Origin: a virus
DNA: 17,091 nt
Strand: one strand, 5' to 3'
IMG/VR virus record: IMGVR_UViG_3300047160_030535
Coordinates: 1-17,091 of that record
The notes under the pieces were generated by a model. It saw nothing but the letters and a program-made list of their open reading frames with translations. It ran no database searches and was not told the origin of the DNA. Shown here piece after piece: positions 19 to 17,006 of this stretch (the first letter of the stretch is position 1; the number at the start of each line of letters is the position of its first letter). A program made the position numbers and the translations under genes.

Positions 19-95
19 TGCGGGGTGGAGCAGTCTGGCAGCTCGTCGGGCTCATAACCCGAAGGTCGCAGGTTCAAATCCTGCCCCCGCTACCA
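19..95 (+). tRNA. Initiator tRNA-Met (tRNA-fMet), anticodon CAT at 53-55, CCA encoded
   Basis: 77-nt cloverleaf read by eye. Acceptor TGCGGGG/CCCCGCT, D arm GAGC-AGTCTGGCA-GCTC, T arm GCAGG-TTCAAAT-CCTGC, then A-CCA. Anticodon stem TCGGG/CCCGA has three consecutive G:C pairs next to loop CTCATAA. Layout and most bases match E. coli tRNA-fMet as I remember it. Positions 1:72 are T.T, and an unpaired 1:72 is the initiator hallmark. Confidence 0.9.
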
Positions 96-1705
96 ACGAA
101 ACTACAACGAGAGCCGCCGCCGGCTCTCAGCAGGGACGCCGCGACGCCCTGCTCACTCCAAAGCCTGACCTCCTGCTCGTCTGCCTCGACCGTCACGGTG
201 CCAACGTGCTCGCGGATCTCCTGGCGTGCGCGTGCGATGTCGCCTGAAGCCAGAGTGTCCTCAAGCCTCTCAACCGCTCGCTTGGCGCGTGTGGGCAGAT
301 CGGCCAGAAGCTCCGTAACGTCTGTCGCCGGCGACTGCGAGGCCTCGGCCTGTAGGCGCTCCAGTTCGGTCTCGGCCGCGGCCAAGCGAGCCGCGAGTGT
401 CGGCGAAGCTCGCCACGCACCGCTAGCGATGGCATCGGCTAGGTTGTCGACCTGGGCGCGCAGTTCCGCGGTGCGCCGGCGATTGTCAGGCGCTTTCGCC
501 GTCGGCTTCCGCACCTGTGCACGGAAGCGGCGGCACACCTCCTCGATGACCTCAGGCGACAGCATGTCGTGCTTGATGCCCGCCGTGACTTCCGCTTCGG
601 CCCACTGTCGCCGGATCGTGGCGCTGTTGGTGCACAACGCATGACCGCCGGTGGTGTGGCCAGCGCAGGCGTAGCGATCCACGCCGCGCATGGAGTACGA
701 CGCGCCGCAGTGAGAGCATTTGATCAGACCCGAGAGCAGGAACTTGTTCCCGGTGCCCGAGCGGATCGCGGCGCCTTTGGAGAGGCCACGCCTGACGCCC
801 TCGCCAATGCGGCGCGCCTGTTCCTCGCGGCGCGCCCGCGCCCGTTGCCAGAGATCATCGCTCACAATGCGCAAACGCTCGTCCTGGCGCGTGATCCACT
901 CCGAGCGCGGGTTCAACACCTGACGGCGCCGGCTCGAGTCGGCTGCCGACCGAATCCAGCGCGACCGGTTCCAGATCACCTCGCCCTTGTAAAGCGGGTT
1001 ACACAACACGCCGAGTCCGCGCGCGGGGTTGTTGTAGATCGCGCTCGACACCCACCCACGCTTCCGGCGCGCCTCGCGGCCCCATGTCGAGCCCGGTGAT
1101 GGCACGCCCTCTCGATTGAGCGCCTCCGCGATCGCGCGCGGGCTGTGACCATCGACGTACAAGGCGAACACTCGCCGCACGATTGCAGCTTGCGCCTCAT
1201 CGATCTCAACCTGCCCGGTGCCCGACAGCGCCGGCGGAACGTAGCCATAGGCGCGGCCGCCTGCGGTCTTGCCCTGGCGCGCGCGACCTTCGAGGCCGCG
1301 TCGCGTGCGCCGGCCGATCTCCTTGCGATACGCCTGGGCCATGGCACCGCCGACGGCGCCCATTATCTCTGCCGACTCGTGGCGCGTGTCGAGGTCATGC
1401 GTCACCACCGCGATTCCGAGGTCCGCGAGCTCGGCGAGCCGCGGCGATTGCTCGGCCAGGTTGCGCCACAGGCGCGACGTGTCCTCGGCGACGATTACAT
1501 CAAACTCGCGGTGCCGCGCGGACACCAGAAGCTTCTGATAGCCGGGCCGCTGCGCCGTGCCACCACTGATCGCCGCGTCGCTGAAGCGGGCGATTACCGT
1601 GAACCCGTTGGTATTCGCTATGCGCTCCGCGACTCGGAACTGATCGGGGAGCGAGGCCTCGGATTGCTTCTCCGTCGAGAAGCGGGCATACAGTGCGGCT
1701 CTCAT
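74..1705 (-). CDS. Large serine recombinase (serine integrase family), 543 aa
   Basis: N-terminus MRAALYARFSTEKQ has the resolvase/invertase catalytic-serine motif, followed by DVIVAEDTSRLWRN. Then comes a long recombinase domain, a Cys cluster (CSHCG...CAGH...C) and a coiled-coil-like, Ala/Glu/Leu/Arg-rich C-terminal third, which is the large-serine-recombinase architecture. ATGA start/stop overlap with the upstream gene. The stop codon (74-76) lies inside the tRNA T-loop. Confidence 0.9.
   Translation of the reverse strand: MRAALYARFSTEKQSEASLPDQFRVAERIANTNGFTVIARFSDAAISGGTAQRPGYQKLLVSARHREFDVIVAEDTSRLWRNLAEQSPRLAELADLGIAVVTHDLDTRHESAEIMGAVGGAMAQAYRKEIGRRTRRGLEGRARQGKTAGGRAYGYVPPALSGTGQVEIDEAQAAIVRRVFALYVDGHSPRAIAEALNREGVPSPGSTWGREARRKRGWVSSAIYNNPARGLGVLCNPLYKGEVIWNRSRWIRSAADSSRRRQVLNPRSEWITRQDERLRIVSDDLWQRARARREEQARRIGEGVRRGLSKGAAIRSGTGNKFLLSGLIKCSHCGASYSMRGVDRYACAGHTTGGHALCTNSATIRRQWAEAEVTAGIKHDMLSPEVIEEVCRRFRAQVRKPTAKAPDNRRRTAELRAQVDNLADAIASGAWRASPTLAARLAAAETELERLQAEASQSPATDVTELLADLPTRAKRAVERLEDTLASGDIARARQEIREHVGTVTVEADEQEVRLWSEQGVAASLLRAGGGSRCSFVGSGGRI
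77..95. repeat. attL core: left copy of the element-bounding direct repeat (13-bp perfect 83-95; 17/19 over 77-95)
   Basis: AATCCTGCCCCCGCTACCA here versus AATCGAGCCCCCGCTACCA at 16988-17006. This copy forms the functional T-stem/acceptor 3' strand of the tRNA. Confidence 0.75.
109..153 (+). other. Two consecutive GC-rich hairpins directly 3' of the tRNA, inside the recombinase 3' coding end
   Basis: GAGAGCCG-CCGC-CGGCTCTC (109-128, 8-bp stem). AGCAGGG(A)CG...CGCCCTGCT (129-153, 7+2 bp with one bulge). Neither has a U-tract. Function (tRNA 3' processing/termination, or recombinase mRNA 3' stabiliser) is not determinable from sequence. Confidence 0.3.
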
Positions 1706-2070
1706 CGCTGTCTCTCCAAGGTGTTGGCGACATCTCTTAGTGAGCTGTTGACGTCATCTAATGAACTGACCTCCATCCCCTGCTGGTCCCTCATCTGTTC
1801 CAGCAACCGCACCTGTTCTTGTTGCAGTTGCTTGATCCGCTCGAGGTGCTCCCCGCTCTTGTCCGACGAAGGCGTACCGCTCTTAAAAAGCATCGTGCCG
1901 AGCCAAGTCAGACAAAGTGCCTGCCAAAAGGTGATCGCCTTCAATCCGAAGACGTCCGGCACCACCTGATTCCAAAGCCACATCACTACGCCGGCTAACA
2001 CTACGCCGAGTCCCAACACAACCAGCACCCATACCGCCGCCACGGTCGCGGCTTCTTTGAAGGTCTGCAT
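1702..2070 (-). CDS. Small membrane protein with coiled-coil tail, 122 aa, unknown function
   Basis: Start set at ATG 2068-2070 (GGGGGA 9 nt upstream). The longest-ORF start at 2202 was not used because its first 44 codons are Arg/Ser-rich and overlap the upstream gene. Two hydrophobic segments (VAAVWVLVVLGLGVVLAGVVMWLW; ITFWQALCLTWLGTMLF), then a Q/E/L/R-rich heptad-like tail. Its stop overlaps the recombinase ATG (ATGA). Confidence 0.6.
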   Translation of the reverse strand: MQTFKEAATVAAVWVLVVLGLGVVLAGVVMWLWNQVVPDVFGLKAITFWQALCLTWLGTMLFKSGTPSSDKSGEHLERIKQLQQEQVRLLEQMRDQQGMEVSSLDDVNSSLRDVANTLERQR

Positions 2071-2071
2071 T

Positions 2072-2335
2072 TTATTGTTTCCCCCAGGTGAAGAAGAGGA
2101 TGATCCCCTGCAGGGCCGCGCTGACTCCGGTAGCGATCGCAGCCCATGCGTTGAGCCAGGTTTGGAGCTTGATGCGCGCGACGACTTCCTTTGGCGGCCC
2201 ACTGGCCCATGCTGATGGAAGCACCGGCCTCACCATCGCGGACGCCCACCACCAAAGGCCGCCTGATCCCAACGCCGTGATCGCCGCGGCGAACTGCAGG
2301 CATTTCAATACGCCCATTTGGGAATTTGTGCTCAT
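2072..2335 (-). CDS. Small hydrophobic/membrane protein, 87 aa, unknown function
   Basis: ORF with hydrophobic stretches (FAAAITALGSGGLWWWASAMV; WAAIATGVSAALQGIILFFTW). ATGA overlap with the upstream gene. Its stop lies 1 nt before the next ATG, so it is packed tightly in the operon. Confidence 0.55.
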   Translation of the reverse strand: MSTNSQMGVLKCLQFAAAITALGSGGLWWWASAMVRPVLPSAWASGPPKEVVARIKLQTWLNAWAAIATGVSAALQGIILFFTWGKQ

Positions 2336-3054
2336 TTGTGCTTTCTCGCTTTTTCAGAGCGCTGCCTCTCGCGGTGTGCGTGCACGTAGTAGAGATTCCG
2401 GTGAGCCGGTGAGCAGAAATGCTGTTGCTTGCTCACACTTACGATCTTGAAGTGGTTGCATTCGCGGCAGCGCAAGACCACGTGTCCGTGGGAGCGTAGC
2501 TCTGACAGTCTGATAATCGCCCAGGCGATGAGTCCGAGCGCGGTTCCAAATTTGATCTGCGGGGTGAACTCCGCGAAGCCCTTCGCGTTCAACACCACAC
2601 GCCCAGGCAAGAATTGCACGTCTGAATTAACGGTTGCGGCGAGCGAGGCGAAGGAACCTCCTCCGGCCGCAAACTTCTGTCCCGCACGGCCGAGCAGCCG
2701 CTTGTCCGTGATGAGATCAGCGAGCACCTCGCCCATCTGCCTGACCGCATCCACAAAGTTGATGTCGTAGCTCTGCTGCACGACGGCGGCGCCTTCCGGC
2801 GATGCGATGCGCTCCTCGCTCCAACCCTTGTGTCTCGCGTTCGCGATGATCGACTCGCGCAGAAAGTTGGTATTGCCGGGCGCGTGCTGATCAGCGATCG
2901 CGCGGAATGCGACGTGATCGATGTCTGCCGCCGTCGTGACTGCGGGCCGCTTGTATGGCGTCACCGCGTTGACAGCGGCGATGGCGCCAACGATGGCGGC
3001 CTGCTCGACCGCTGGCAGTGACTTGAACCTGAGCCTTGTAAGCGCTTTTGCCAA
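2332..3054 (-). CDS. Hypothetical protein, 240 aa, with a CGNR-like zinc-finger C-terminus
   Basis: GC-rich third codon positions. TTG start (no nearby in-frame ATG). The C-terminus CRECNHF-x10-FCSPAHRN-x5-HxHRER resembles the C-x2-C...CS...(C/H)xNR pattern of CGNR-type zinc fingers. It is the first gene of a 4-gene overlapping operon that ends in the recombinase. Confidence 0.6.
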   Translation of the reverse strand: MAKALTRLRFKSLPAVEQAAIVGAIAAVNAVTPYKRPAVTTAADIDHVAFRAIADQHAPGNTNFLRESIIANARHKGWSEERIASPEGAAVVQQSYDINFVDAVRQMGEVLADLITDKRLLGRAGQKFAAGGGSFASLAATVNSDVQFLPGRVVLNAKGFAEFTPQIKFGTALGLIAWAIIRLSELRSHGHVVLRCRECNHFKIVSVSKQQHFCSPAHRNLYYVHAHRERQRSEKARKHK

Positions 3055-3114
3055 CTACTCGCCCTTGCGTAATTACAAATGCCTGTAAGCGCTGGAATAC
3101 TCGGTACGCTTACA
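3037..3114. promoter_or_regulatory. Divergent promoter/operator region with three copies of half-site TGTAAGCG
   Basis: TGTAAGCGCT at 3037-3046 and 3084-3093 (direct), and CGCTTACA at 3107-3114 (inverted). TATAAA at 3118-3123 sits 5 nt before ATG 3129 with no SD in between, which suggests a leaderless transcript for the HTH gene. Confidence 0.5.
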
Positions 3115-3128
3115 ACTATAAATCACTT

Positions 3129-3389
3129 ATGGACATTAGAGAAGCCCATGAGACACCTGCACTGCAGGAGCAGTACTGCGAGACCGTTTCCACAATTGCG
3201 CGTCTCTCCGGGTGCGCCAGCGCCGAGATCGTCCGGTTGTATGCCGACCTCAAGTTGATCGAGTGCATTCGCACGGATAGCGGCCTGCGCCTCTTCAGGC
3301 CGAGCGCCGCACTGAAGGTGCGCGAGATTTACCGTGAGCGGCTAGCGCGTCGCGGGCGGCCCCGCAAGGTGGCGCAGGTCGCGGACTGA
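3129..3389 (+). CDS. MerR/excisionase-superfamily HTH protein, 86 aa (candidate repressor or directionality factor)
   Basis: VSTIARLSGCASAEIVRLYADLKLIECIRTDSGLRLFRPSAALKVREI fits the MerR-type HTH pattern (helix-turn-helix, then G.R.F/Y, then a second wing helix). Basic C-terminal tail. Start taken at ATG 3129 because the longer ORF start at 3048 would lie inside the divergent gene. Confidence 0.6.
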   Translation: MDIREAHETPALQEQYCETVSTIARLSGCASAEIVRLYADLKLIECIRTDSGLRLFRPSAALKVREIYRERLARRGRPRKVAQVAD

Positions 3390-3496
3390 GCCGATGGCCC
3401 TCCCCGCCCACCTGCAGCGCTACAGCGGCTTGATCGACCTCGTAGTCGAGGCGCTGGTGCGCGAGGCGCAGGGGGGAGCGGAGACCGAAAGAGAAA

Positions 3497-3526
3497 CGCC
3501 CGGCCGGGGACGAATCCGGCCGGGCG
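3497..3526 (+). terminator. Strong GC hairpin (11-bp stem, 8-nt loop) between the HTH gene and the replication-like operon
   Basis: CGCCCGGCCGG-GGACGAAT-CCGGCCGGGCG. It is followed only by a weak T-containing tract (CTATTC), so it may be a terminator or an attenuator. Confidence 0.4.
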
Positions 3527-3547
3527 CTATTCAGGCATCGAGAGGTA

Positions 3548-3832
3548 TTGACGATGACGAGTCTACAACCCCTGCGCCTCGCGCACAAAACTGAGGCGCA
3601 GAGCGCCGCCTCGCGTCGCAGACTTTGCACGGGCTGCCGCCACTTCGCCGCCGCTGCCGACATCACCGTCGTCAACTACGTACACGAGGTCGCGCCCTGC
3701 GCCTGGCGACTGGCCGTGCTGCGGTATTGCCCTCAATGCATTCGCATCTGGAACCGGCTGGAGCTCGCCGTCTGCCTGCGCGCCTTCCGCGCGCGACCTG
3801 CGCTGCGAGTGATCCCGGGAGGGCGGAGGTGA
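3548..3832 (+). CDS. Cys-rich small protein, 94 aa (putative zinc-binding)
   Basis: GAGAGG upstream of the ATG. High GC3. CTGC...C...CPQC arrangement. Its TGA overlaps the GTG of the next gene (GTGA). Confidence 0.55.
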   Translation: MTMTSLQPLRLAHKTEAQSAASRRRLCTGCRHFAAAADITVVNYVHEVAPCAWRLAVLRYCPQCIRIWNRLELAVCLRAFRARPALRVIPGGRR

Positions 3833-4140
3833 CCGCGGAAACTGCCAGCACGCCCAGCCTCGCCCACCTGCAGCGTGAGGCGCGCGAGATCATCGAGCGC
3901 GTCGACCGCGAGGCAGAAGAACTCCGCCAGCAGCTCGCTCGAGGTGTCCGCGAACGCGTGCCGCCCGCGGGGCTCTTATTGCGAACCGCTGCGGCACTTG
4001 GCGCCTGCGGCATCAACCATCGCGCGATGCTCGCGGCGCTCCGTGAGATTAATCAGGATTGCTTCCCAACACTCGATGGCGATGAGTTGGAGGAGATCGC
4101 GGTCGCTTTCACGTGTGATTCCAACGGGGAAGCAGCGTGA
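3829..4140 (+). CDS. Hypothetical protein, 103 aa
   Basis: Start placed at GTG 3829 (GGGAGGGCGGAG just upstream, GTGA overlap). The longer ORF from 3625 has an Arg-rich off-frame-looking N-terminus that overlaps the better-looking 3548 CDS. Helical, Glu/Arg-rich sequence. Confidence 0.5.
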   Translation: MTAETASTPSLAHLQREAREIIERVDREAEELRQQLARGVRERVPPAGLLLRTAAALGACGINHRAMLAALREINQDCFPTLDGDELEEIAVAFTCDSNGEAA

Positions 4141-5387
4141 CCGCCCAACTCGATGCGAGCGGAGGTGCAGCACTGCTCGATGAGTTGGAGAGCTTTCTCG
4201 CACGCTTCGTGGCGTATCCATCGCAGGACGCACGGATCGCTCACGCACTGTGGCTCGCGCACACGCATGCCATGGAGGCCTGGGAAAGCACGCCACGACT
4301 CGCGTTCCTCTCTCCAGAGCCCGGCAGCGGCAAGACCCGCGCGATCGAAGTATCGGAACTGCTGGTGCCGCGCCCAGTCGAGGCGATCAATGCAACTCCT
4401 GCCTATCTTTTCCGTAAGGTTGCGGACCCTGATGGTCTGCCCACGATCTTGTTCGACGAGATCGACACGCTCTTCGGTCCGCGCGCGAAGGAAAACGAAG
4501 AAATCCGCGGTGTGTTGAATGCCGGACATCGACGCGGAGCCATGGCTGGCCGCTGTGTCGTCAAAGGCAAGACCGTGATCACCGAGGAGCTCCCCGCCTA
4601 CTGCGCGGTGGCGCTCGCAGGCCTCGGCAATCTCCCCGATACCATCCTCACGCGCAGCATCGTGATCAGGATGCGCAAGCGCTCCCCCACTGAAATTATC
4701 GAAGGCTACCGGCGACGCCAGCACGCCCCCGAGGGGCACGCGCTGAGAGACCGCCTGGCCACGTGGATGCAAGCCAGGAGCCCCGAACTGAGCGATACGA
4801 GGCCCGCAATGCCAGAAGGCATCACCGATCGCGCTGCCGACGTATGGGAGTCACTACTCGCGATCGCTGATGCCGCAAGCGGCCACTGGCCTGAACGCGC
4901 ACGCGTTACCGCCGTTACCCTTGTTACCGATGCTAAGGCAGCCAGTCCCAGCCTTGGCGTACGCCTCCTCGCTGACCTCCGAACGGTCTTCGCGGGCGCC
5001 CCCGGCCTGCCCACGACTGAGATACTCCGGCGGCTGGCCGAGCTTGAGGATTCCCCCTGGGGTGACCTCAAGGGGAAGCCGCTCGACGCGCGTCGCTTGG
5101 CAAGTCTCCTCCGTCAGTACGAGGTGGAGCGCACAACGTTCCGTATCGGTAACGAAACAGCCAAGGGATACACCTCCGTTACCCTCCACGACGCATGGGC
5201 TAGGTACGTCAACCTTCCTAATAAAGGTAACAAAGGTAACGGAGGTGAGAGTGAGGGCGTAGGAGTGGCTACCAATGGATCGGTAACAGCGGTAACGCCG
5301 GTAACGGCAGGGTGTCGCCGCTGCGGTGGCGAAGGCTGCGAATGGTGTCGGCCCAAAGAGGCGCATCAGAGTGATATCCCGTTCTAG
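4137..5387 (+). CDS. DUF3631-like P-loop ATPase, 416 aa (replication-associated protein of integrative elements/phages)
   Basis: Walker A EPGSGKT, Walker B TILFDEID. The overall order of motifs is as I recall for DUF3631 proteins. C-terminal CRRCGGEGCEWC cluster. GTG start in a GTGA overlap with the previous gene. Confidence 0.75.
   Translation: MTAQLDASGGAALLDELESFLARFVAYPSQDARIAHALWLAHTHAMEAWESTPRLAFLSPEPGSGKTRAIEVSELLVPRPVEAINATPAYLFRKVADPDGLPTILFDEIDTLFGPRAKENEEIRGVLNAGHRRGAMAGRCVVKGKTVITEELPAYCAVALAGLGNLPDTILTRSIVIRMRKRSPTEIIEGYRRRQHAPEGHALRDRLATWMQARSPELSDTRPAMPEGITDRAADVWESLLAIADAASGHWPERARVTAVTLVTDAKAASPSLGVRLLADLRTVFAGAPGLPTTEILRRLAELEDSPWGDLKGKPLDARRLASLLRQYEVERTTFRIGNETAKGYTSVTLHDAWARYVNLPNKGNKGNGGESEGVGVATNGSVTAVTPVTAGCRRCGGEGCEWCRPKEAHQSDIPF
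4905..5305. repeat. Iteron-like array: 10 copies of GGTAAC/GTTACC, three clusters on a 9-bp register
   Basis: GTTACC at 4905, 4914, 4923. GGTAAC at 5148. GTTACC at 5178. GGTAAC at 5226, 5235. GGTAAC at 5282, 5291, 5300. An AT-rich patch TTCCTAATAAAGGTAACAAAGGTAAC lies at about 5215-5240. All copies are inside the DUF3631-like CDS. Confidence 0.7.
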
Positions 5388-5445
5388 GCACCGGCACCCG
5401 CGCTTGCCGTCCGGGTCCGGAGTTTGGTGGCCGTGCGCTGAGGTG

Positions 5446-5463
5446 CCGCGCGTCATCGCGCGG
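5446..5463 (+). terminator. Hairpin CCGCGCG-TCAT-CGCGCGG downstream of the DUF3631-like gene
   Basis: Perfect 7-bp GC stem, 4-nt loop, about 60 nt after the stop. The downstream tract TTGCGGTTGCTTC is only weakly T-rich. Confidence 0.3.
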
Positions 5464-5478
5464 TTGCGGTTGCTTCTA

Positions 5479-5510
5479 ACTTTCCCTATTCTTGTAAGAA
5501 TTGGGAAAGT
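5479..5510. other. 32-bp near-perfect palindrome with lox/FRT-like layout (12-bp arm, 8-bp spacer, 12-bp arm); candidate tyrosine-recombinase site
   Basis: ACTTTCCCTATT-CTTGTAAG-AATTGGGAAAGT. The arms match 11/12 as inverted repeats. It is AT-rich in a GC-rich background and sits 15 nt upstream of the recombinase ATG. A third arm-like copy, AAATGGGAAAGT, lies at 5578-5589 in the same orientation as the right arm. Confidence 0.55.
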
Positions 5511-5524
5511 CGATAGAGGCCACC

Positions 5525-6160
5525 ATGAGCAACGTCATAGCCTTACGCGCAGCGCGCACCCCCTCGCCGACAACAGAAAATGGGAAAGTTCCGCCGAAGC
5601 GGCGCAAGGACGCCAGGCCGCGGAAGCATCTGACGCCTGCGGAGGTAGCGGCGCTCCTGCGAGCGGCGCGGAAGTCGGGGCGCTACGGGCTGCGCGACGA
5701 GGTGGCGGTGCTACTTGCCTACCGGCACGGCCTCCGGGCCTCGGAGCTCGTCGCACTCGAGTGGTCGGCAATCGACTTCAAGGGCGGCACGATCGCGATC
5801 CGGCGCGCCAAGGGCGGCATGACGACCGAGCACCCGCTTCGCTCCGTCGAGTTGCGCATCCTCGGGAAACTGCGTCGGGAGCAGCCGGAGACGCGCTACG
5901 TGCTCATGAGCGAGCGCGGCACGCCGTGGAGCACGAGCAACTTCCGCAAGGTGCTGCAGCGGCTCGCCGAGGCTGCAGGGCCGGCGATCGCTGTCACCGT
6001 CAACCCGCATGCGCTGCGTCACGCCTGCGGCTTCTATCTCGCCGGCAAGGGTGTCGACACCCGGGCGCTCAGTCACTACCTCGGCCACCGCAGCCTGCAG
6101 AGCACCGAGCGCTACACCGCGCAGAGCGCTCATCGCTTCCGGGACTTCTGGCGCGACTGA
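5525..6160 (+). CDS. Small tyrosine recombinase, 211 aa (catalytic domain only; FimB/FimE / small Xer-Cre size class)
   Basis: Tyrosine-recombinase signature: LLAYRHGLRASE (Arg I), HALRH (His/Arg II), LGHRS, ERYT (catalytic Tyr). There is no arm-binding or long N-terminal domain. AGAGG lies 5 nt upstream of ATG 5525. The TTG at 5501 given by the ORF track falls inside the palindrome and is less likely. Confidence 0.85.
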   Translation: MSNVIALRAARTPSPTTENGKVPPKRRKDARPRKHLTPAEVAALLRAARKSGRYGLRDEVAVLLAYRHGLRASELVALEWSAIDFKGGTIAIRRAKGGMTTEHPLRSVELRILGKLRREQPETRYVLMSERGTPWSTSNFRKVLQRLAEAAGPAIAVTVNPHALRHACGFYLAGKGVDTRALSHYLGHRSLQSTERYTAQSAHRFRDFWRD

Positions 6161-6303
6161 TAAGCAGCAGCTGCTGCAGCTGCAGCAGTACTACTACCAA
6201 TAGATGCACCGAGGCCTGCGACAGATACTCCGGTCACCATCAGGGAGGCCACGAACATCACCATGATCATGATGATCATGATGATCACGACCACCATGGT
6301 CAT
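6130..6303 (-). CDS. Possible small hydrophobic peptide, 57 aa (speculative)
   Basis: MTMVVVIIMIIMIMVMFVASLMVTGVSVAGLGASIGSSTAAAAAAAAYQSRQKSRKR: one very hydrophobic segment, poly-Ala, and a basic tail. No convincing SD. The second half has low GC3. The 3' end overlaps the tyrosine recombinase stop region in antisense. Confidence 0.25.
   Translation of the reverse strand: MTMVVVIIMIIMIMVMFVASLMVTGVSVAGLGASIGSSTAAAAAAAAYQSRQKSRKR
6263..6289. repeat. Tandem 9-bp repeat ATGATCATG x2 plus ATGATCACG, giving three GATC sites 9 bp apart
   Basis: Read directly: ATGATCATG ATGATCATG ATGATCACG. It is embedded in a locally AT-richer, low-complexity segment (6160-6350). Confidence 0.8.
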
Positions 6304-6350
6304 GACGACCACGACCAGGGTGGCTCGGGGGCGAGAGATGTAAGGCGACG

Positions 6351-6641
6351 CTACGCCGCCAGAGCCTTCAGCACGTGGTCCGGATCCTTCTTGATCGCCT
6401 TCAGGAGAGCCTTGGCGGGCCCGGTGGGCTCGCGCAGGCCCTGCTCCCAATTACGCAGCGTGCCGACGTTCACGTGCATCAGGGCGGCGAACTTGGGCTG
6501 GCTCAAGCCGGTCTCCGCCCGCAGCGCCTTGATGGCCACAGCGTCGATGCTGAACTCGCGGGACGGCGCCCGCTCGCCGCGGGCGATTTCGCCCATCTGC
6601 GTCACGCTCTCAACCAGGTCAGCAAACAGCTTTTTGTTCAC
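6351..6641 (-). CDS. higA: HigA-2-like XRE-family antitoxin, 96 aa
   Basis: IKALRAETGLSQPKFAALMHVNVGTLRNWEQGLREPTGPAKALLKAI matches the XRE HTH plus the WEQG.R.PtGpA.aLL signature of HigA-2-type antitoxins. GTG start with GAGAGG upstream. It lies 10 nt downstream of the toxin gene. Confidence 0.8.
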   Translation of the reverse strand: MNKKLFADLVESVTQMGEIARGERAPSREFSIDAVAIKALRAETGLSQPKFAALMHVNVGTLRNWEQGLREPTGPAKALLKAIKKDPDHVLKALAA

Positions 6642-6651
6642 GGCACACCTC

Positions 6652-6963: not shown

Positions 6964-6972
6964 GCGGCATGG

Positions 6973-7004: not shown

Positions 7005-7019
7005 CGGTAGGGCCGCATT

Positions 7020-7253: not shown

Positions 7254-7334
7254 GAATTCCTAGGTCGATAGAGTGCAGCTATGATGGCTGCAGTTGGTGA
7301 AGTACTTTTCTGCACCAACAGGAGAGTGCTCGCG

Positions 7335-10128: not shown

Positions 10129-10129
10129 G

Positions 10130-10423
10130 GTGCGCGGCGCTGCGGGCGTCTGCGTGAGCCAGGCGCCGCGCAATCGCCTGACGCCCGAGCAGGTCGGCCG
10201 CTCGGTACTCGCGGTGCTGGCGCGCCAGGCTGACGAGAAGCGCCGCCAGGGCGAGCGAACCGCTGCCGCCGTGCGAGCGTTGCTCAAGGGCGATCCGGCG
10301 CTCTCAGCGCGCGAGGTTCACGCACGGCTGCCGATTGTGGTATCGGTGCGGCGCGTTCAACAGATTTTGAAAGCGCTTCGACGAAGCACCGTCGGTGTTT
10401 CGCTTCAGTCCGACGCACACTGA
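10130..10423 (+). CDS. Small HTH protein, about 97 aa
   Basis: High GC3. GTG start (10130, or alternatively 10154). LSAREVHARLPIVVSVRRVQQILKAL looks like an HTH. Confidence 0.5.
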   Translation: MRGAAGVCVSQAPRNRLTPEQVGRSVLAVLARQADEKRRQGERTAAAVRALLKGDPALSAREVHARLPIVVSVRRVQQILKALRRSTVGVSLQSDAH

Positions 10424-10427
10424 GTCC

Positions 10428-10652
10428 ATGGACGTCCAACTCGCACGCACCACGGGCCCGCTGGAGCGCCTCGCTTACTCGCTGGCCGAGGCCGAGGCGG
10501 CGAGCGGAATCTCGCGCAGCTCGCTGTACAACCTGATCGCGGCCGGGAAGCTCAAGACAATCCAGCTCGGCCGCCGGCGCCTGGTGCCGCGCGAAGAACT
10601 TGAGCGGCTGTGCAGCCTCAACCCAACCAACCAGGAGGAGCGACTCGCGTGA
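10428..10652 (+). CDS. Excisionase-family (AlpA/Xis-type) HTH DNA-binding protein, 74 aa
   Basis: YSLAEAEAASGISRSSLYNLIAAGKLKTIQLGRRRLVPREELERL matches the excisionase-family HTH pattern (s..eaA..lgvSrstly.li..G.l....iGrr.lip...l..). Confidence 0.75.
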   Translation: MDVQLARTTGPLERLAYSLAEAEAASGISRSSLYNLIAAGKLKTIQLGRRRLVPREELERLCSLNPTNQEERLA

Positions 10653-11113
10653 CAGAAACGAAGACACCATGGCTGCGCGCAGGAGACGGCCGCGTGCGCT
10701 TGATCGTGTTGAAGATGTTCTATTTCCTCCAGAAGGTTGGTGGCACCAACAGCACGACAGGCCGAGAGCGTAAGTTCGAGGTGAAGGAGCACCTGTTGGA
10801 TCCCAACAATGCCGACGACGCGGCGGTGCTCGCACACCCTTGGGTTCACCGGGACTTTTGCGACGGCTTCATCGAGTCGCCCGCCGCGACTCGCGCGCGC
10901 GTCGAGCGCGAAGCCGCAGCGGAAGCCGAGCGCACCGCGGCCGCCCAGCGTCGCATCGAAATATTGACGCGCGAGGCCGATGCAGCATTCGGACACGCAG
11001 TGCGCCACGCTCAGCAGCAGGGCGCCGCAGGGGCGGCGGTGGCTGACGAGCTCAACACCCCGTTAAACCAACTCGGCGGCGCTGCGCTCGACGTGCCGCT
11101 CGATGCACGGTGA
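10649..11113 (+). CDS. Hypothetical protein, 154 aa
   Basis: GTG start in a GTGA overlap with the excisionase-like gene, with AGGAGGAG upstream. The C-terminal half is Ala/Glu/Arg-rich and helical. Confidence 0.5.
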   Translation: MTETKTPWLRAGDGRVRLIVLKMFYFLQKVGGTNSTTGRERKFEVKEHLLDPNNADDAAVLAHPWVHRDFCDGFIESPAATRARVEREAAAEAERTAAAQRRIEILTREADAAFGHAVRHAQQQGAAGAAVADELNTPLNQLGGAALDVPLDAR

Positions 11114-11174
11114 GCGGATGAATCACATTCGAGCATGGGGGGGCCAGCGGGTTGGGCGCCGCACGCTCCGTCGC

Positions 11175-11193
11175 CGGGTTTTTACCCGTTTTT
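11175..11193 (+). terminator. Short intrinsic-terminator-like hairpin CGGGT-TTTT-ACCCG followed by TTTTT
   Basis: Read directly, about 60 nt after the stop at 11113. The stem is only 5 bp, so this is weak. Confidence 0.3.
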
Positions 11194-11353
11194 CTACCGG
11201 CGGCCGCACCACTGGTAGGTGTGCGCGAAAACCACCAGCGCCGGCACGGGGGGGAGCCTCCTAATAATCTTTTTCCCCCTGGTGGCCGCAAGCGCGCCGG
11301 TTGGTCCATGTCGGCGCGCGCCCCTTCGAATTCAACGTTAGGAGTTAGTTGAC

Positions 11354-12067
11354 ATGAATACTCTTGGTTATAGGCACTGCGGCGAACGCGTCGTGGGACC
11401 AATTCCAACACGCGATGGCAACGTGTACGCCCCGCTGAGGATTACGCGTGATCAGCTCAACAGCGTCGAGCCCACTGGTCAAACAATTAGCCGCGGCAAA
11501 GTGTGGACCGGTGAGGGCGTCAACGCACGACTTGACTCGAAAGCTGCGCCCGTTCGCGCTTTTGTCGGCGGGTATACGCTCGGCAATGTCATTCACGCCG
11601 TCGATCCGGGGCAATTGATTGATCTCGCGCGCACCTACAAAGGGCTCATCGAAGATGAAGACATTCGCGCTGGTGTCGAGCACCAGATCGATGCGTTGGA
11701 ACGCGAGTGGGTAGCCGATCCGCGCTCTGGCGGCATTGATCATCGCGGTGCGCGGGACCGCGGTGCAAAGGACTCGCCTGGCGCCGCCCTTGACAACCCC
11801 TACCCCGCCGAACACGAGGCGCCGCCGCTGGTTCCATCGCAGTCGCGGGATGCGATGTTCAACCCCGCACGCACTGAGGCCTTCGCGCGGAACATGAAGT
11901 CAGGCCGCACCGACCAGACCTCCGCAGTGCGGGACGCGGCCGTCGCAAGCGCGAAGGCCCACGCCGCAGGGCGACAGCAGCCAACGCGCAGCCGGTTTTT
12001 TGACCCCAGCCCGGCGCGGAGCTATGCCGAAAGACTCAGGGCCGGCCGGGCGGCGAAGAGTGCGTAG
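11354..12067 (+). CDS. Hypothetical protein, 237 aa
   Basis: AGGAG lies 9 nt upstream of the ATG. The sequence is plausible as non-repetitive protein in this frame, while the competing minus-strand ORF 11345-11815 looks off-frame. No family recognised. Confidence 0.6.
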   Translation: MNTLGYRHCGERVVGPIPTRDGNVYAPLRITRDQLNSVEPTGQTISRGKVWTGEGVNARLDSKAAPVRAFVGGYTLGNVIHAVDPGQLIDLARTYKGLIEDEDIRAGVEHQIDALEREWVADPRSGGIDHRGARDRGAKDSPGAALDNPYPAEHEAPPLVPSQSRDAMFNPARTEAFARNMKSGRTDQTSAVRDAAVASAKAHAAGRQQPTRSRFFDPSPARSYAERLRAGRAAKSA

Positions 12068-12320
12068 GTTGCAGCACGACGAACTCGTCGCGGCGGCTAT
12101 GGCGCTGCCCACGCCGGCGCACTGTGCGGGCTGCGGCCGCGCGTTTCGCGATGAGGTGATCTGGCGGCGCGTCGAGGAGATGATGTTGGGGCCGGTCGTG
12201 ATCGCGCTTTGCGAGCCATGCAATCAGCGAATCCCTCGCGGGAGCCTGGCAGAGCTGCCGTTGATAGCGAAGGCTGAGGGCGAGGTGCTCGCGGCCTTGA
12301 TTGCGCAAGGCCACGCATAA
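12060..12320 (+). CDS. Small CxxC...CxxC zinc-ribbon protein, about 86 aa (start uncertain: GTG 12060 or ATG 12099)
   Basis: HCAGCGRAF...CEPCNQ. The TAATG stop/start overlap with the next gene suggests translational coupling. Confidence 0.45.
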   Translation: MRRLQHDELVAAAMALPTPAHCAGCGRAFRDEVIWRRVEEMMLGPVVIALCEPCNQRIPRGSLAELPLIAKAEGEVLAALIAQGHA

Positions 12321-13339
12321 TGGCCGCCCAGTACCTCCGCAATCTCAGCCTCATCGTTGCCGATCCCGCGGGCAAAGGCTTGGAGCTTGGCGACCTGCGC
12401 TGTGTGTTCGAGGTGCGGCGCGGCGATCTGCAGACGCCTAACTCGTGCGACGTCAGGGTCTACAATTTAGCTGATGCCACCGCTAATCGACTGCGCACGC
12501 CTGAGTTCACGCAGCTGGAATTGAGAGTTGGGTACGCCGATCAGCAGCTGCAGCTGATTTTCCGCGGCAGCATCCGCCAGGTGCGTAAGGGCCGCGAGGA
12601 TCAGCGCAACTCCTACGTCAGCATCACGGCTGCCGATGGCGACGAAGCCTATAACTTCTCCGTCGCCGCGCTGACGCTCGCCGCGGGCTCGACACCGCAG
12701 AACGCGATCGAGCGGCTGATTCAGCAGATGGCAACTGCCGCGTCGGGTTCACCGACCGGCGGCTCCGGCGGCCAGGTGGTCACGCAGGGTTATCTGCCAG
12801 CGCTGACGACGAACAAGTCCGTGCGCGGGCGCACCTACTTTGGCATGTGTCGCGACGAACTTCGCGAGCTCGCCGAAAACAATGATTGTTTCTGGTCGAT
12901 TCAGGACGGTGCCGTCACATTCATTCCGCAGACGGCTTTCATCCCCGGCACGGCCGTGTTGATCACGCCGTTCACTGGCCTCATCGGCGTGCCCGAGCAG
13001 ACACAAAACGGTCTCGACATGACGGTGCTCATCAACCCGAGCATAAAGATTGGTCAGCTAGTGAAGCTCGACTCATCAGACATCAACAGATTCCGTTACG
13101 GCCTCGACCTGCCAGCGCAGCCCATCAATGTCTTGTTGGCGCAGTCGGTGACCAAACTCAATGCCGACGGCCTTTACTACGTCATGCGCGCCGATCACAC
13201 CGGAGATACGCGCGGCAACACGTGGTACACAAAGTTAGTATGCCTCGCGGTGGACGCCGCCTTCCCGCAGACCGCGGCGCCTCAGGCGGCCATCGCGCCG
13301 CCATTTCCGCCGCCGTTGAACGCAGTGCCAAGGTACTAA
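12320..13339 (+). CDS. Phage tail/baseplate hub-like protein (gpD / gp27 / XkdQ-like N-terminal pattern), 339 aa
   Basis: The N-terminal pattern L.L.V.D..G..L.L..L...FEV......PN.C.V.VYNL...T...L.....LELRVGY.....LIF.G.I......R.......V.I.A.DGDEAY resembles hub/protein-D-type tail proteins as I remember them. The CDS itself is well supported; the functional call is tentative. Confidence 0.5.
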   Translation: MAAQYLRNLSLIVADPAGKGLELGDLRCVFEVRRGDLQTPNSCDVRVYNLADATANRLRTPEFTQLELRVGYADQQLQLIFRGSIRQVRKGREDQRNSYVSITAADGDEAYNFSVAALTLAAGSTPQNAIERLIQQMATAASGSPTGGSGGQVVTQGYLPALTTNKSVRGRTYFGMCRDELRELAENNDCFWSIQDGAVTFIPQTAFIPGTAVLITPFTGLIGVPEQTQNGLDMTVLINPSIKIGQLVKLDSSDINRFRYGLDLPAQPINVLLAQSVTKLNADGLYYVMRADHTGDTRGNTWYTKLVCLAVDAAFPQTAAPQAAIAPPFPPPLNAVPRY

Positions 13340-13359
13340 ACGCCGAAGGTGGGCCAAAC

Positions 13360-14214
13360 ATGTCGTACTCAATCGCAACCGTCTTTGACGCCGATGGCAC
13401 GGCTAGCGGCGGCACGATTGGGGCGACGGGAACGCTTACAGTCGGCGGGCGCGCGCCAATACTGATCGTAGGCGCTGGCTTTTCCGACCTCGTATCTGGC
13501 GTGAGTGATGGCACCTCGAACAGCTATTCGCACGTGACGGGTGGGTCGCTCGCCAACCCCGGGTCCTCGGGACTGTTCTACTCACTCTGGGAGTGCAAGA
13601 ACATCGTGACGGGCGGCTCGCAGACCGTGACGGCGACGTACTCGAGCGCGGTGACGCAGCGCGCGATCGCCGTCGTGGTCGCGACAGGACTGGATACGTC
13701 GGCGGCTGCGGCGATTAACACGACCGCCAACATCACCCCAGGCAACGGGACTGACATCATTACATCGGGTACGGCGACCCCTGGGGCACAGCCGGCAATG
13801 GTTCTTGGCTTCGCTCAGGACGTGACCGCAGACTTCAGTTCGCTGACCGCTGGCACAGGATTCACTTCGCACAGCCTGCCAAACTTCAGCCTGATCAACA
13901 GCGGCTGTATCGCCATCTGTGAAGACAAGCGGGTCACCTCGACCAGTGCAGTCGCGGCAACCTTCTCGACCGCCGCTGGCGGTGGCGATGACTACGCTGC
14001 CTTGGTTTACATAGTCCCGGAGACCTCTACTGGAAATACTGGTATCACTCCTGGCGCGGGCTCGGCCACATGTACCGGTAACACCGCGATCGTGACCCCG
14101 CGCCTCAACACCGTCATCACGCCGGTTCGCGCGCAGTACGAGCGCGACACTAGCAGCGGACTCCTTGTGCCCTCACGCAAAATTTTTCTGCCGCCGATGA
14201 AAATAGCGGCGTAG
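13360..14214 (+). CDS. Ser/Thr/Gly/Ala-rich beta-type protein, 284 aa (possible tail fibre / receptor-binding or jelly-roll protein)
   Basis: GGTGG lies 7 nt upstream of ATG 13360; the ORF-track start at 12886 is an off-frame-looking extension through the previous gene. The composition and alternating beta-strand-like segments (TVTATYSSAVTQRAIAVVVATG; AVAATFSTAAGGGDDYAALVYIV) are typical of fibre/lectin-like folds. Confidence 0.5.
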   Translation: MSYSIATVFDADGTASGGTIGATGTLTVGGRAPILIVGAGFSDLVSGVSDGTSNSYSHVTGGSLANPGSSGLFYSLWECKNIVTGGSQTVTATYSSAVTQRAIAVVVATGLDTSAAAAINTTANITPGNGTDIITSGTATPGAQPAMVLGFAQDVTADFSSLTAGTGFTSHSLPNFSLINSGCIAICEDKRVTSTSAVAATFSTAAGGGDDYAALVYIVPETSTGNTGITPGAGSATCTGNTAIVTPRLNTVITPVRAQYERDTSSGLLVPSRKIFLPPMKIAA

Positions 14215-14236
14215 GGCCGTGTGACTGGCTCGTAGA

Positions 14237-14527
14237 TCACAGCCGCAGCTGCAATATGCGCGTGTTGTCCACAACCACGTGCAGCTGCACAGCCCTGCGC
14301 CTGGCGAGCTTGCGCCGGCGCCAGGCGGCGTCCTCACGGGCTTCAATCTGCTCGTGCCGCTCGAGCTCTGCGCGCACGGCTCGCAAGTACGCATGCACAG
14401 CAACGGCTGCCGGGGCTGCGGGCAGCGCGCGCACGGCGGCTGCGAAAACGGTGGCGAAGGCCTCGCCGAGCGCTCGGCGAACGGCTTCTTGGGCGGCGCG
14501 CTCCACGACCAGCGTGGCTGCTGACAT
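14237..14527 (-). CDS. Hypothetical Ala/Arg-rich helical protein, 96 aa
   Basis: GGAGG lies 5 nt upstream of the ATG on the minus strand. High GC3. It is convergent with the fibre-like gene and divergent from the Q-like gene. Confidence 0.55.
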   Translation of the reverse strand: MSAATLVVERAAQEAVRRALGEAFATVFAAAVRALPAAPAAVAVHAYLRAVRAELERHEQIEAREDAAWRRRKLARRRAVQLHVVVDNTRILQLRL

Positions 14528-14663
14528 GCTGACCTCCAGTTGTTTGGTGGCGAGTTTATGACGGCCGCTGGTCTCCTATACACGTACCGCAGCGCTTTAA
14601 TTCCGGCCAGCAATTAGGCGCTTGCGCGCGCGCATCCAAACAATGGATTCCTATGGGGGACGT

Positions 14664-15410
14664 ATGTCGCTGCCGCGACCTCCGGTAGACGACCGAGTCG
14701 CGTGCGAGGCCACCCTCGAGATCGACAGGACCGCTCACCGGCGGATCGATCCGCACCTGGTCGACCTCGACATCCGCCTGCAGCGCTGGGCCTGGTGGGC
14801 AACCGCCTTCTACAAGGCGAAAGGACTTCCCCTCCAGGGCAGTGATCTGGCCACGTGCGGCGCGCCTCGCGATGCCTGGCCGCCGTCCGTGGTGGCCACG
14901 GACGCCGCCGTGCAGGTTTTATCCTTGCGACAGGGGTGCGCGGTTTTCGCGCATTACTGCAGCCGGAACTTGCTGCCCGATAAGCGCGCGCAGGTCTTCG
15001 TCGGCCTGGTCCAGCACCTCGCGCGGCTGAAGGCAACCGCGGCGCCTGCCGTCAGCGCCCGCGCGTTCCGCGAGGATCTCGACCGCGCCCGATGGGTGCT
15101 GAGGGTTGTGCTGGCAGGTGTGAGACAAGAGGGCTACAGCGCCCCCGCGGCGAAGTACAACTGCGGCGCATATAATCGCACCCCCAGCCGTACAGTCGAG
15201 GCCCATCAGATGGTGGAATTCAAAGAACGCTCTACGCTCGGTCGCCCGTCCCAGATCGAAGTCATTAACAATAGTTTGCCCGTCGGGCATATCAGCAAGG
15301 GAGCAGACGGCACATATCGCTATTATCGGGGAATGCAAAACGAGACGACGCCGCAGTACTCGGACCGCAGTCTCGAGGCGCTCAAAGCGAAAGTCAGACA
15401 GGGTCCATAA
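14664..15410 (+). CDS. Putative regulator, 248 aa: Q-antiterminator-like N-terminal region plus a lower-GC C-terminal beta-beta-beta-alpha-like domain
   Basis: GGGGGA lies 3 nt upstream of ATG 14664. DIRLQRWAWWA followed by DAAVQVLSLRQGCAVFAHYC...FREDLDRARWVLRVVL recalls the LERWGAW...D.a..I......L...YY...l..ae..v..mL layout of phage-82-type Q proteins. The C-terminal GHISKGADGTYRYYRG...SLEALKAKV resembles AP2/arm-type DNA-binding folds. Both calls are tentative. Confidence 0.45.
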   Translation: MSLPRPPVDDRVACEATLEIDRTAHRRIDPHLVDLDIRLQRWAWWATAFYKAKGLPLQGSDLATCGAPRDAWPPSVVATDAAVQVLSLRQGCAVFAHYCSRNLLPDKRAQVFVGLVQHLARLKATAAPAVSARAFREDLDRARWVLRVVLAGVRQEGYSAPAAKYNCGAYNRTPSRTVEAHQMVEFKERSTLGRPSQIEVINNSLPVGHISKGADGTYRYYRGMQNETTPQYSDRSLEALKAKVRQGP

Positions 15411-15474
15411 GCCAAGGCGCCGCGCTAACAATCGTCATGTAGAATCAGCTCCCCGCATCAGAGGGGAACCGGTC

Positions 15475-15951
15475 GTGAAGAACTGGGGCAACGTCGAGAA
15501 CTCACTGCGATTCTGGGACCTTTGGCCCGTTCTGCTTGTCCTCGTGCTCCTCGGCGTGTTTGTCGCCGTGCTCGCTTGGGGACCATGGACCATCGACAAT
15601 GCTGCCGACCTTGGCGAGGCATTCGGGATCATCAACGCGGTGTTCACCGGCCTGGCGTTCGCGGGTCTCATCATCACGATTCTGATTCAGGCTCGCGAAC
15701 TGCGACTGCAACGCGAGCAGCTGGCGCTTCAGCGCGAGGAACTGGCCTCACAGCGCGACGAATTGAGGCGCCTCGCGAACGCTCAAGACGACCAGAACTA
15801 CGCGCTACTGGTCAGCGCGTTCGCCGCAGCCGAGGCGTTCGAGCAGCGCCTGAGTTCTTCGTCGCCCTCGCAGGAATTCGCCGAGGCGATTCGATATCTG
15901 AGGACTCACCTGAAGGCGGAGACAGCCAGACGGCGAGAGATCGGCGCCTAA
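15475..15951 (+). CDS. 2-TM membrane protein with coiled-coil tail, 158 aa
   Basis: GTG start with GGGGA 8 nt upstream. TM segments WPVLLVLVLLGVFVAVLAW and FGIINAVFTGLAFAGLIITILI, then RELRLQREQLALQREELASQRDELRRL. Reminiscent of the N-terminal TM-plus-Q/E-helix of putative AbiC-like proteins, at low certainty. Confidence 0.6.
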   Translation: MKNWGNVENSLRFWDLWPVLLVLVLLGVFVAVLAWGPWTIDNAADLGEAFGIINAVFTGLAFAGLIITILIQARELRLQREQLALQREELASQRDELRRLANAQDDQNYALLVSAFAAAEAFEQRLSSSSPSQEFAEAIRYLRTHLKAETARRREIGA

Positions 15952-15969
15952 CAATAAAGGGGGGTGGCC

Positions 15970-16323
15970 ATGGGCGGCATCGGTTTGCGCGAACTGGTAG
16001 TGATACTCGTAGTCGGGCTGCTTTTCGGCGGAGCGATCGCTCTGCTCTTTCCACGAAGGCGGGTACCGCTCAAAGTCAAACGGATTATCGCATGGGCGTG
16101 GATAGCGATCGGAGTGCTTCAGATCGTGATCGGCGCCTCGTACCAGACAACCGGGGGACATGCGATGGCCACCAACGGCCTCTCTGAGGTCGCAATCTTC
16201 GGTGGCGCGTTACTGACCTTCACAGAGAAACGATGGCTGCGGGTGATTGGTGGCTGCGCGATCTTCGTTGGCGTTGTGCTCATGGTGGCTGCTGGCGCCA
16301 TGAGAAACAGCCCCCCGCACTGA
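15970..16323 (+). CDS. 4-TM integral membrane protein, 117 aa
   Basis: The G-rich SD (AAAGGGGGG) ends 5 nt upstream of ATG 15970. Four hydrophobic segments are separated by short charged loops (PRRRVPLKVKR; EKRW). Confidence 0.6.
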   Translation: MGGIGLRELVVILVVGLLFGGAIALLFPRRRVPLKVKRIIAWAWIAIGVLQIVIGASYQTTGGHAMATNGLSEVAIFGGALLTFTEKRWLRVIGGCAIFVGVVLMVAAGAMRNSPPH

Positions 16324-16427
16324 GGCTGCAACGAAAACGCCGCCCGAAGGCACGCTTAAGAGGTTATAGCCGCCGGCAACCGCCGGAATCCTCGTAGAAT
16401 TGCCGCGCGCAACAGAGGCGGATTTAA

Positions 16428-16943
16428 ATGGCGGACGTGACAGTGACCGGAACTGGAATCATGGTGACCACTCGCTTAGGCAAGCCGGGCGAGGTGACTA
16501 TCGAGTACCGCGAGGCGCTGGTTCGGACGACGCGCCTGATGGTGGAGCACACTCAGGCCGAGCCCGATGTCGAGAAGCGAGGCTTCTACGCCCGGGCCTC
16601 AACGCTGTGCGCGCACGCGGCTGCCGAGGGCATTCTCAACGAGTGGCTGTTGAACCGCGATCGCGCCGCCTATCAGAAGCTCGTCGTCGACGCTAAGAAG
16701 AAGCTGGGTCTGGTGAGGCTCGCCGAGCTGACGGTCGGCATGATTGGCGGCACGGTGCCGGCTGACCTCGCCGACCTGAGCTCGCACAAAAACGCGCTGA
16801 CGCATCCGCAGCCGGAGCACCCGCGAACGAGAGCAGTGGGCGGCTGGCTGCTCAGTGACGGACCGCAGCGGGCCCTCGGCGTTGTGGAGGATCTCTATCG
16901 CCAGTTCTTCCCCGGCGGCCAGGCTGCTCCGGTAGCGCCCTAA
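16428..16943 (+). CDS. Hypothetical helical protein, 171 aa, with a KNALTH (R/K-N-x3-H, HEPN-like) motif
   Basis: GAGG lies 9 nt upstream of the ATG. Helix-rich sequence. LSSHKNALTHPQ resembles the RNxxxH HEPN catalytic motif with Lys in place of Arg. It is the last gene before attR. Confidence 0.55.
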   Translation: MADVTVTGTGIMVTTRLGKPGEVTIEYREALVRTTRLMVEHTQAEPDVEKRGFYARASTLCAHAAAEGILNEWLLNRDRAAYQKLVVDAKKKLGLVRLAELTVGMIGGTVPADLADLSSHKNALTHPQPEHPRTRAVGGWLLSDGPQRALGVVEDLYRQFFPGGQAAPVAP

Positions 16944-16987
16944 GTGACTGATTTGCCGCGCCTTGGCAGCCTTGCAAGTAACGTCCG

Positions 16988-17006
16988 AATCGAGCCCCCG
17001 CTACCA
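16988..17006. repeat. attR core: right copy of the element-bounding direct repeat
   Basis: AATCGAGCCCCCGCTACCA. Bases 16994-17006 are identical to tRNA positions 83-95. The CGA replacing CCT would break the tRNA T-stem, so this is a non-functional partial copy. AT-rich flank follows. Confidence 0.75.

Follow-up and report, generated by a model that had tools for sequence, protein, structure and literature searches.

How the 3′ end of an initiator tRNA gene came to be present twice in a viral sequence record, which enzyme placed the second copy there, and whether the DNA between the copies is a single mobile element, are questions raised by IMG/VR record IMGVR_UViG_3300047160_030535. The window analysed here is the entire virus-database record of 17,091 nt, classed by the database as linear with an estimated completeness of 31%; the record has no attached host genome, and host context is drawn from relatives. 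The interval 96–16993 is most likely a mobile element that entered the 3′ end of an initiator tRNA-Met (tRNA-fMet) gene through the action of a large serine recombinase (LSR).

The duplicated end of an initiator tRNA gene

An intact initiator-type tRNA-Met(CAU) gene occupies 19–95 (+ strand), where ARAGORN makes its sole call in the window, a tRNA-Met(CAT), and Rfam RF00005 matches at 19–92 with 64.4 bits; initiator marks read directly from the gene are the unpaired positions 1/72 (U/U) and the GGG/CCC pairs closing the anticodon stem. The last 13 nt of the gene, GCCCCCGCTACCA, are found at 83–95 and, by repeat search, again at 16994–17006, both on the + strand and nowhere else in the window even at ≤1 mismatch. 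ARAGORN calls no tRNA at the right copy. A third, internal attachment-site copy was sought with the last 21, 16 and 13 nt of the tRNA at ≤5, ≤3 and ≤2 mismatches, respectively, and was rejected, none being present in the window even at ≤5 mismatches in 21. Guanine–cytosine (GC) content is 64.5% within the element and 37.6% in the 85 nt that follow the right copy. The original prediction had described this arrangement accurately, including the tRNA call, on which ARAGORN and Rfam agree, the exact recurrence of the last 13 nt, the 17/19 match that takes in AATC, and the passage from GC-rich to AT-rich DNA after 17006.

A repeat of only 13 nt, in GC-rich sequence and in a metagenome-type record, might be suspected of being a chance match or an assembly artefact, although this explanation is extremely improbable: shuffled sequences are expected to hold 0.03 matches and yielded two copies in 0/200 cases, 13 nt is far below assembler word sizes, and the same repeat recurs in independent genomes, with unchanged orientation and position with respect to the LSR gene, a family comparison that effectively refutes a chance repeat.

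The enzyme at the junction

The enzyme encoded next to the left junction is an intact LSR and not a tyrosine-type recombinase. Its open reading frame (ORF; 74–1705, − strand, as delimited by the ORF ends) specifies 543 residues, comprising a Resolvase catalytic domain (PF00239, 1.7e-29, residues 3–146) and C-terminal Recombinase (PF07508, 1.6e-19) and zinc-ribbon (PF13408, 9.1e-10) domains; the protein matches the phrog_95 integrase at 7.7e-88 over residues 1–514 and solved serine-recombinase catalytic domains at E 1e-6 to 4e-4, and alignment shows the Y-A-R-F-S-T motif (R8, S10) to be kept across relatives and two phage LSRs. The gene had been predicted to abut the left repeat copy, and in fact overlaps it, the ORF reading through the attachment-site (att) core to a stop codon (74–76) inside the tRNA. 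Exact-protein look-ups returned no identical protein on record for the LSR or for the last gene of the window.

Integration at the 3′ ends of tRNA genes is overwhelmingly the work of tyrosine integrases (PMC10484663), and a tyrosine-family recombinase gene is present within the element (5501–6160, + strand; Pfam PF00589, 2.9e-35). That this enzyme made the tRNA junctions, as in classical tRNA islands, is nevertheless very improbable, and the candidate was rejected: the gene is internal, 5.4 kb from the nearest junction, and its 219-residue product consists of the catalytic domain only, whereas the junction-adjacent gene encodes the LSR; the association of LSR gene and tRNA end persists across dozens of loci with differing cargo; and the att arms show the symmetry typical of LSR sites. 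The identity of the junction-adjacent gene and the internal position of the sole tyrosine recombinase likewise set the window apart from tRNA islands of the P4/lambda type. Of the original proposal of an integrated element at the tRNA-fMet 3′ end, the reading of the repeats as left and right attachment sites (attL and attR) is supported, whereas the tyrosine-type mechanism that it implied is not, since the adjacent enzyme is an LSR, with a probable 2-bp exchange at the CC described below.

Relatives at the same tRNA

Relatives of the LSR were sought in viral contigs, species-representative genomes and a large protein collection. At least 790 proteins in the last match at E≤1e-50, and a second copy of the window's element was not found, the best LSR relative in that collection being 75% identical; the closest relatives with named hosts belong to Steroidobacteraceae and other Gammaproteobacteria. 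Where the LSR is 45–75% identical, the 3′ end of its gene lies against an identical tRNA-fMet or a copy of the core at 17/17 loci. An identical tRNA-fMet adjoins the related integrase at L003, L013, L014, L017, L020, L040, L067, L069, L070 and L071; the junction consists of a core copy without the tRNA at L004, L015, L016, L018 and L042, where it falls within a tandem array or within a tRNA that is partly masked, and at L068 and L072, where it falls at a contig end. A second core copy stands on the same strand 8.8–11.3 kb away at L014, L015, L017, L020 and L040. More distant LSRs (30–34% identical) in Sinorhizobium, Acetobacteraceae and Acidoferrum also abut tRNA-Met. The 13-mer might have proved common genome-wide, which is not the case in relatives: in five relatives' genomes (3.5–4.9 Mb) it forms same-strand clusters at LSR/tRNA loci only, and chromosome record G005 holds two copies there and none elsewhere.

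An empty site, the configuration that the original prediction proposed to look for, was found for relative L020 only. In genome G098 the tRNA-fMet ends at position 369 and the distal flank of L020 begins, base-exact, at 370, with 92% identity over 115 nt upstream and 95% over 39 nt downstream, terminator hairpin included; the 11.3 kb separating the two L020 cores was thus inserted precisely at the end of the tRNA. For relative L014, no empty site was found at the level of DNA or of protein synteny in 30 relatives' genomes. With these comparisons, the two 13-mers of the window can be read with good confidence as the attL and attR left when an LSR inserted the element into tRNA-fMet.

The LSR genes of L020 (10001–11624) and L040 (10001–11609) are themselves interrupted, being open for 71 and 287 codons from the start, respectively; tblastn matches continue past the interruption, and these may be pseudogenes or assembly frameshift errors.

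Reconstructed attachment sites and probable crossover position

To rebuild the phage-type attachment site (attP) of the window and of five relatives, the arm that precedes the distal core on its left was fused to the one that follows the proximal core on its right, and the inverted symmetry of each reconstruction was scored at every possible centre. The best dyad centre is the same CC dinucleotide, nt 2–3 of the 13-mer (84–85 in attL and 16995–16996 in attR of the window), in 6/6 reconstructed sites, with 12–16 of 23 positions complementary per site and a summed score of 88 vs 53 for the next-best centre. At L015, GGCAAGTA and TACTTGCC are equidistant from the shared CC, one on each side; the core pair of L018 (785 bp apart), scored as a seventh, does not show the CC centre.

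Arm comparison and dyad analysis place the integrase-proximal P′ arm of the window at 96–110 (+ strand), with AAACTACAA at 99–107, where close relatives carry TTACTTGCA or TACTTGTA; the P′ half-site of the window is the most diverged of the family. The integrase-distal P arm lies at 16970–16993 (+ strand), with GCAAGTAA at 16974–16981, mirroring the TACTTGC motif of relatives' P′ arms. The resulting attP is ∼50 bp long, imperfectly palindromic, and overlaps the 3′ end of the integrase gene, and the bacterial site (attB) is composed of the tRNA T-arm, the acceptor end and a few flanking bases. Joining 16993 to 83–96 gives the predicted circular junction (...GAATCGA, core, ACGAAACTAC), and joining the tRNA end (95) to 17007 gives the predicted attB, with a flank starting TAAAAATCAATATC; both coincide with the reconstructions drawn on paper in the original prediction.

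The crossover dinucleotide of a serine integrase must be non-palindromic, and CC qualifies. Both attL and attR contain the dinucleotide, which on the tRNA falls where the T-stem meets the acceptor stem and is likely to be the 2-bp crossover. Because the adjacent integrase is an LSR, the 13 bp would not be an exchange core; the other 10 bp would represent an element-borne copy of the tRNA acceptor end.

The steps of integration proposed here follow what is established for LSRs. Dimers of the integrase on attP and on attB would synapse, both sites would be cut at the same CC, and the half-sites would rotate and then religate. The P′ half-site would supply CCCGCTACCA (acceptor 3′ strand, discriminator base and CCA), rebuilding the tRNA in attL, such that in the integrated state the last ∼10–11 nt of the tRNA would come from the element; 13 bp would be duplicated, instead of the chemically needed 2 bp, because the P′ half-site carries CCCGCTACCA to restore the tRNA. 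LSR integrases recombine attP with attB without cofactors and require a directionality factor for excision, which excision here would need as well. For this copy of the enzyme, crossover position, activity and excision are all inferred from sequence.

Since attP is embedded in the 3′-terminal part of the integrase gene, the enzyme ends in a different C-terminal tail in the circular and integrated forms. In the window the integrated tail reads ...GSGG-RI, two residues after GSGG, and the circular one ...GSGG-SIRTLLARLPRRGKSVT, 17 residues after it. Among full-length family members the ORF crosses the core in one of two frames, giving ...GSGGRI tails in the window, L013, L016 and L042 and ...VAGAGFEPATFGL tails in L014, L017, L003 and others; in other members than the window the integrated tail is 13 tRNA-encoded residues. 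The circular-form tails are alike (TLLA..PR), and this likeness coincides with the DNA half-site motif; protein and DNA constraints are therefore inseparable. A functional tail swap, acting as a built-in sensor of the integration state that would bias the enzyme toward integration or excision and that would be conserved across the large clade of tRNA-fMet-using LSRs, is a speculative and rather doubtful proposal. Within the last ∼18 codons of the same ORF, hairpin analysis identifies a terminator-like hairpin with a 9-bp stem followed by a T-rich run (108–129, − strand), just before the att core; in relatives, too, a hairpin stands 12–20 nt from the core. If the hairpin of the window terminates transcription, the integrase mRNA would lose its stop codon.

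The right flank and the junctions of the window itself

The AT-rich right flank (17007–17091, + strand) is presumed to be host DNA forming the B′ side of attB. It contains an exact match to the integration host factor (IHF) consensus WATCAANNNNTTR at 17011–23 and a direct repeat of GCTTTACTAC at 17049–58 and 17060–69; an analogous pair, ATCTGTCTACTAT twice, follows the same IHF-type motif in L055 (about 1560–1600). The first ∼18 nt of the flank (TAAAAATCAATATCTTAGAG; 17007–17026) recur at 91–100% identity in genomes of the Steroidobacteraceae family (L054, L055, L056, L058, L059 and L060), in unrelated contexts that include the position just upstream of tRNA-Arg(CCT), the position right after a partial tRNA 3′ end and, by eye, the position just before an apparent pseudouridine-synthase (RluC-like) gene. 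From this distribution, TAAAAATCAATATCTTAGAG looks like a family-specific regulatory or protein-binding motif rather than a host-specific flank.

Searches for the junctions of the window itself gave negative results: a right-flank 30-mer was absent from genome contigs and metagenome contigs, an attP-junction 30-mer from viral contigs, an empty-junction 24-mer from metagenome contigs, and an empty-junction 29-mer, at ≤3 mismatches, from 401 family genomes, and the full 85-nt flank returned only motif matches of 17–24 nt in unrelated contexts. The two checks that the original prediction had proposed, an empty site carrying the window's own flank and a circular junction, were thus negative or uninformative in these collections, which is weak evidence.

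To the left of the attL junction the record extends for 95 nt, and beyond the attR core it extends for 85 nt, or 98 nt when counted from where the identity begins. These near-symmetric overhangs are similar to a large assembler word size and hint, no more, at assembly-graph breaks at polymorphic or repeated att junctions; the Logan contigs of relatives L068 and L072 likewise break off no more than ∼10 nt away from the integrase stop codon. The sight of both junctions in one record partly reflects how the record was cut or assembled.

One element or several

It is likely, though unproven, that the window contains precisely one element that is complete and still mobile. Several observations count against the simple reading of a single insertion between attL and attR. 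The failure to find an own-flank empty site or a circular junction weighs weakly; the right flank is only 85 nt long and lacks the terminator found downstream of the tRNA in the host flanks of relatives; the element measures 16.9 kb, against 8.8–11.3 kb in relatives, holds a second recombinase, and could be an accretion of elements; and the dyad score of the window's attP, 12/23, is tied with L014 as the lowest, with a P′ arm that departs from the family motif, and this copy may excise poorly. Of the original claim that a complete element is visible with its whole cargo, the identification of both 13-mers as attL and attR stands, whereas completeness is unproven given the 85-nt flank, the frequency of arrays and the missing empty site.

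Tandem arrays are common at this tRNA. Contig C28 of genome G006 carries four same-strand core copies at 50698–82652, and genome G007 has two clusters of three cores (C1, 74599–87565; C9, 565729–579799); such arrays, seen also in the viral record behind L004/L007, stack three or more different elements at one tRNA-fMet with a core copy between each, and hybrid junctions are found at L015, L017, L018 and in the record behind L004/L007. In some array neighbours the duplicated stretch of the tRNA end is 21 nt long rather than 13, and at least two element types therefore use this site. Against this background, the 16.9 kb might not be one element, either through accretion with loss of an internal att copy or through membership of a tandem array in which the right flank would belong to the end of an adjacent element, an explanation also favoured by a size 1.5–2 times that of relatives' elements and by a tyrosine recombinase and an excisionase-family helix-turn-helix (HTH) gene far from the LSR. 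It is, however, unlikely: an internal copy of the tRNA end is absent even at 5 mismatches in 21; cores in arrays lead into GC-rich integrase 3′ ends, whereas the 37.6% GC flank of the window is non-coding in appearance; and single elements of relatives also hold internal tyrosine recombinases.

Cargo and mobility

Upstream of the integrase, a small membrane protein resembling phrog_2169 (PHROGs) is encoded at 1702–2202 (− strand). A putative replication module (3625–5387, + strand) comprises a PriCT_1-like ORF (3625–4140; a weak Pfam match, E=0.0013) and a DUF3631 protein (4137–5387; 1.4e-60), a family also represented in the element of relative L067. A tyrosine recombinase like that at 5501–6160 is also internal to relative L071 (6274–7185, 303 residues). 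Family searches identify a RelE-like toxin gene (6652–6963) with an HTH antitoxin-like gene (6351–6641), together spanning 6351–6963 on the − strand. The packaging module (7281–10128, + strand) consists of an ORF resembling the small terminase subunit TerS (7281–7955) and the ORF of the large subunit TerL (7795–10128; Pfam Terminase_6N/6C and PHROGs); the former is shared, by tblastn, with relatives L015 and L016 and lies upstream of TerL there (TerL in L015), and the latter runs ∼270 residues past the ATPase/nuclease domains (9181–10128) with high third-position GC and no family match. A small DNA-binding protein of the HTH_17 (AlpA/excisionase) family is encoded at 10395–10652 (+ strand; family searches), and a baseplate-hub-like protein (phrog_196, 1.2e-68; Pfam E217_GP41) at 12320–13339 (+ strand).

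No capsid, portal or tail family other than the hub was matched by ORFs of the window in Pfam or PHROGs, several ORFs being without assignment, and megablast of the whole window against phages matched the tRNA alone. Integrase aside, the cargo ORFs are almost entirely unshared with the elements of relatives, whose 9–11 kb carry an HK97-type capsid protein, a VapE or D5 primase-helicase, TerL, or an AAA_25 ATPase.

These contents raise the possibility, less favoured but a serious one, that the LSR-inserted element is now immobile, being what is left of a decayed prophage rather than an active satellite or element. Terminase and hub-like genes unaccompanied by a detected capsid, portal or other tail gene, the database completeness estimate, the divergence of the P′ half-site and the reduction of the tyrosine recombinase to its catalytic domain would all fit such decay. 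On the other hand, the LSR ORF retains its full length and an intact catalytic motif, both 13-mers are identical, and relatives at the same site are also small, combining a primase-helicase with one or two virion genes in the pattern of a satellite. By gene content, the cargo most resembles that of a phage satellite, which it would fit better than random decay, with a decayed prophage as the alternative.

Comparison with known systems

Insertion at tRNA-Met by a serine recombinase is already documented, and the window adds a member of that kind. The mitomycin-inducible Paracoccus aminophilus phage phiPam-6 has a serine recombinase and is integrated at tRNA-Met with a 17-bp repeat, CCCTCCTCCGCTACCAT; it is one of six prophages of 32.9–43.9 kb and a complete tailed phage of an alphaproteobacterium (PMC3925955). 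It shares with the window the serine-family recombinase, the tRNA-Met target and a direct repeat corresponding to the tRNA 3′ end (17 bp there, 13 bp here), and differs in that the element of the window is 16.9 kb long, has no detected capsid or portal gene, and has its relatives in Steroidobacteraceae (Gammaproteobacteria). The C089B-type Ni islands of Mesorhizobium likewise encode a serine recombinase and occupy the tRNA-Met 3′ end, where their repeat is 14 bp; they are 53–172 kb long and carry metal-tolerance and mobilisation genes (PMC10990125). The window shares this type of integration site, with 16.9 kb of phage-type cargo in place of a metal cargo. Both comparisons are by published description.

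Among phage genomes, Rhizobium phage RR1-A (NC_021560) and Microcystis phage Mae-JY30 (PP438422) encode LSRs 32–35% identical over about 510 residues, and the last ∼20 codons of each integrase contain a core resembling tRNA-fMet (coding strand, TGGTAGCGGGAG or TGGTAGCGGAGG; complement TGGTAGCGG...). These att sites were read from the sequence and are not annotated features. The cores are flanked by inverted repeats, including a perfect 13-bp pair in Mae-JY30, and the spacing from dyad centre to CCA end is the same as in the attP reconstructed for the window; in contrast to the window, these are phage genome records of 53–62 kb in which the site is uninterrupted, as in attP, and these phages therefore carry the attP form reconstructed here. 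The attP-like core of Mae-JY30 (L063, 2740–2800; complement CCTCCGCTACCA) also resembles the published Paracoccus phage repeat.

The integrases of phiC31, Bxb1, TP901-1 and A118 share with the LSR of the window the three-domain architecture and the catalytic serine motif; their att sites are small and have dyad symmetry around a 2-bp crossover, as predicted for the window. These phages integrate into protein-coding genes or intergenic sites; their attP and attB share only 2–12 bp, and attP lies outside the integrase ORF. Satellites of the phage-inducible chromosomal island (PICI) and P4-like types resemble the window in size class, terminal integrase, a primase/helicase-type replication module and few packaging or virion genes without a full virion set, and differ in that the integrase of the window is of the serine type and that there is no sequence match to a defined satellite family.

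Implications for tRNA-targeting serine integrases

For annotation, a duplicated tRNA end need not mean a tyrosine integrase; with a serine enzyme, the length of the repeat reflects repair of the tRNA and not the size of the exchange region. Both the predicted crossover dinucleotide and the predicted 50-bp attP lend themselves to direct testing. To the few documented tRNA-targeting serine integrases, the window adds a precisely mapped member together with a well-populated gammaproteobacterial clade. In attB, the half that the enzyme must read corresponds to the T-arm and acceptor end of initiator tRNA, which are nearly universal, while the outer flank is free to vary from host to host; as integration tools, these enzymes could therefore have a broad host range, and the same tolerance of the flank would explain the stacking of elements in arrays at tRNA-fMet.

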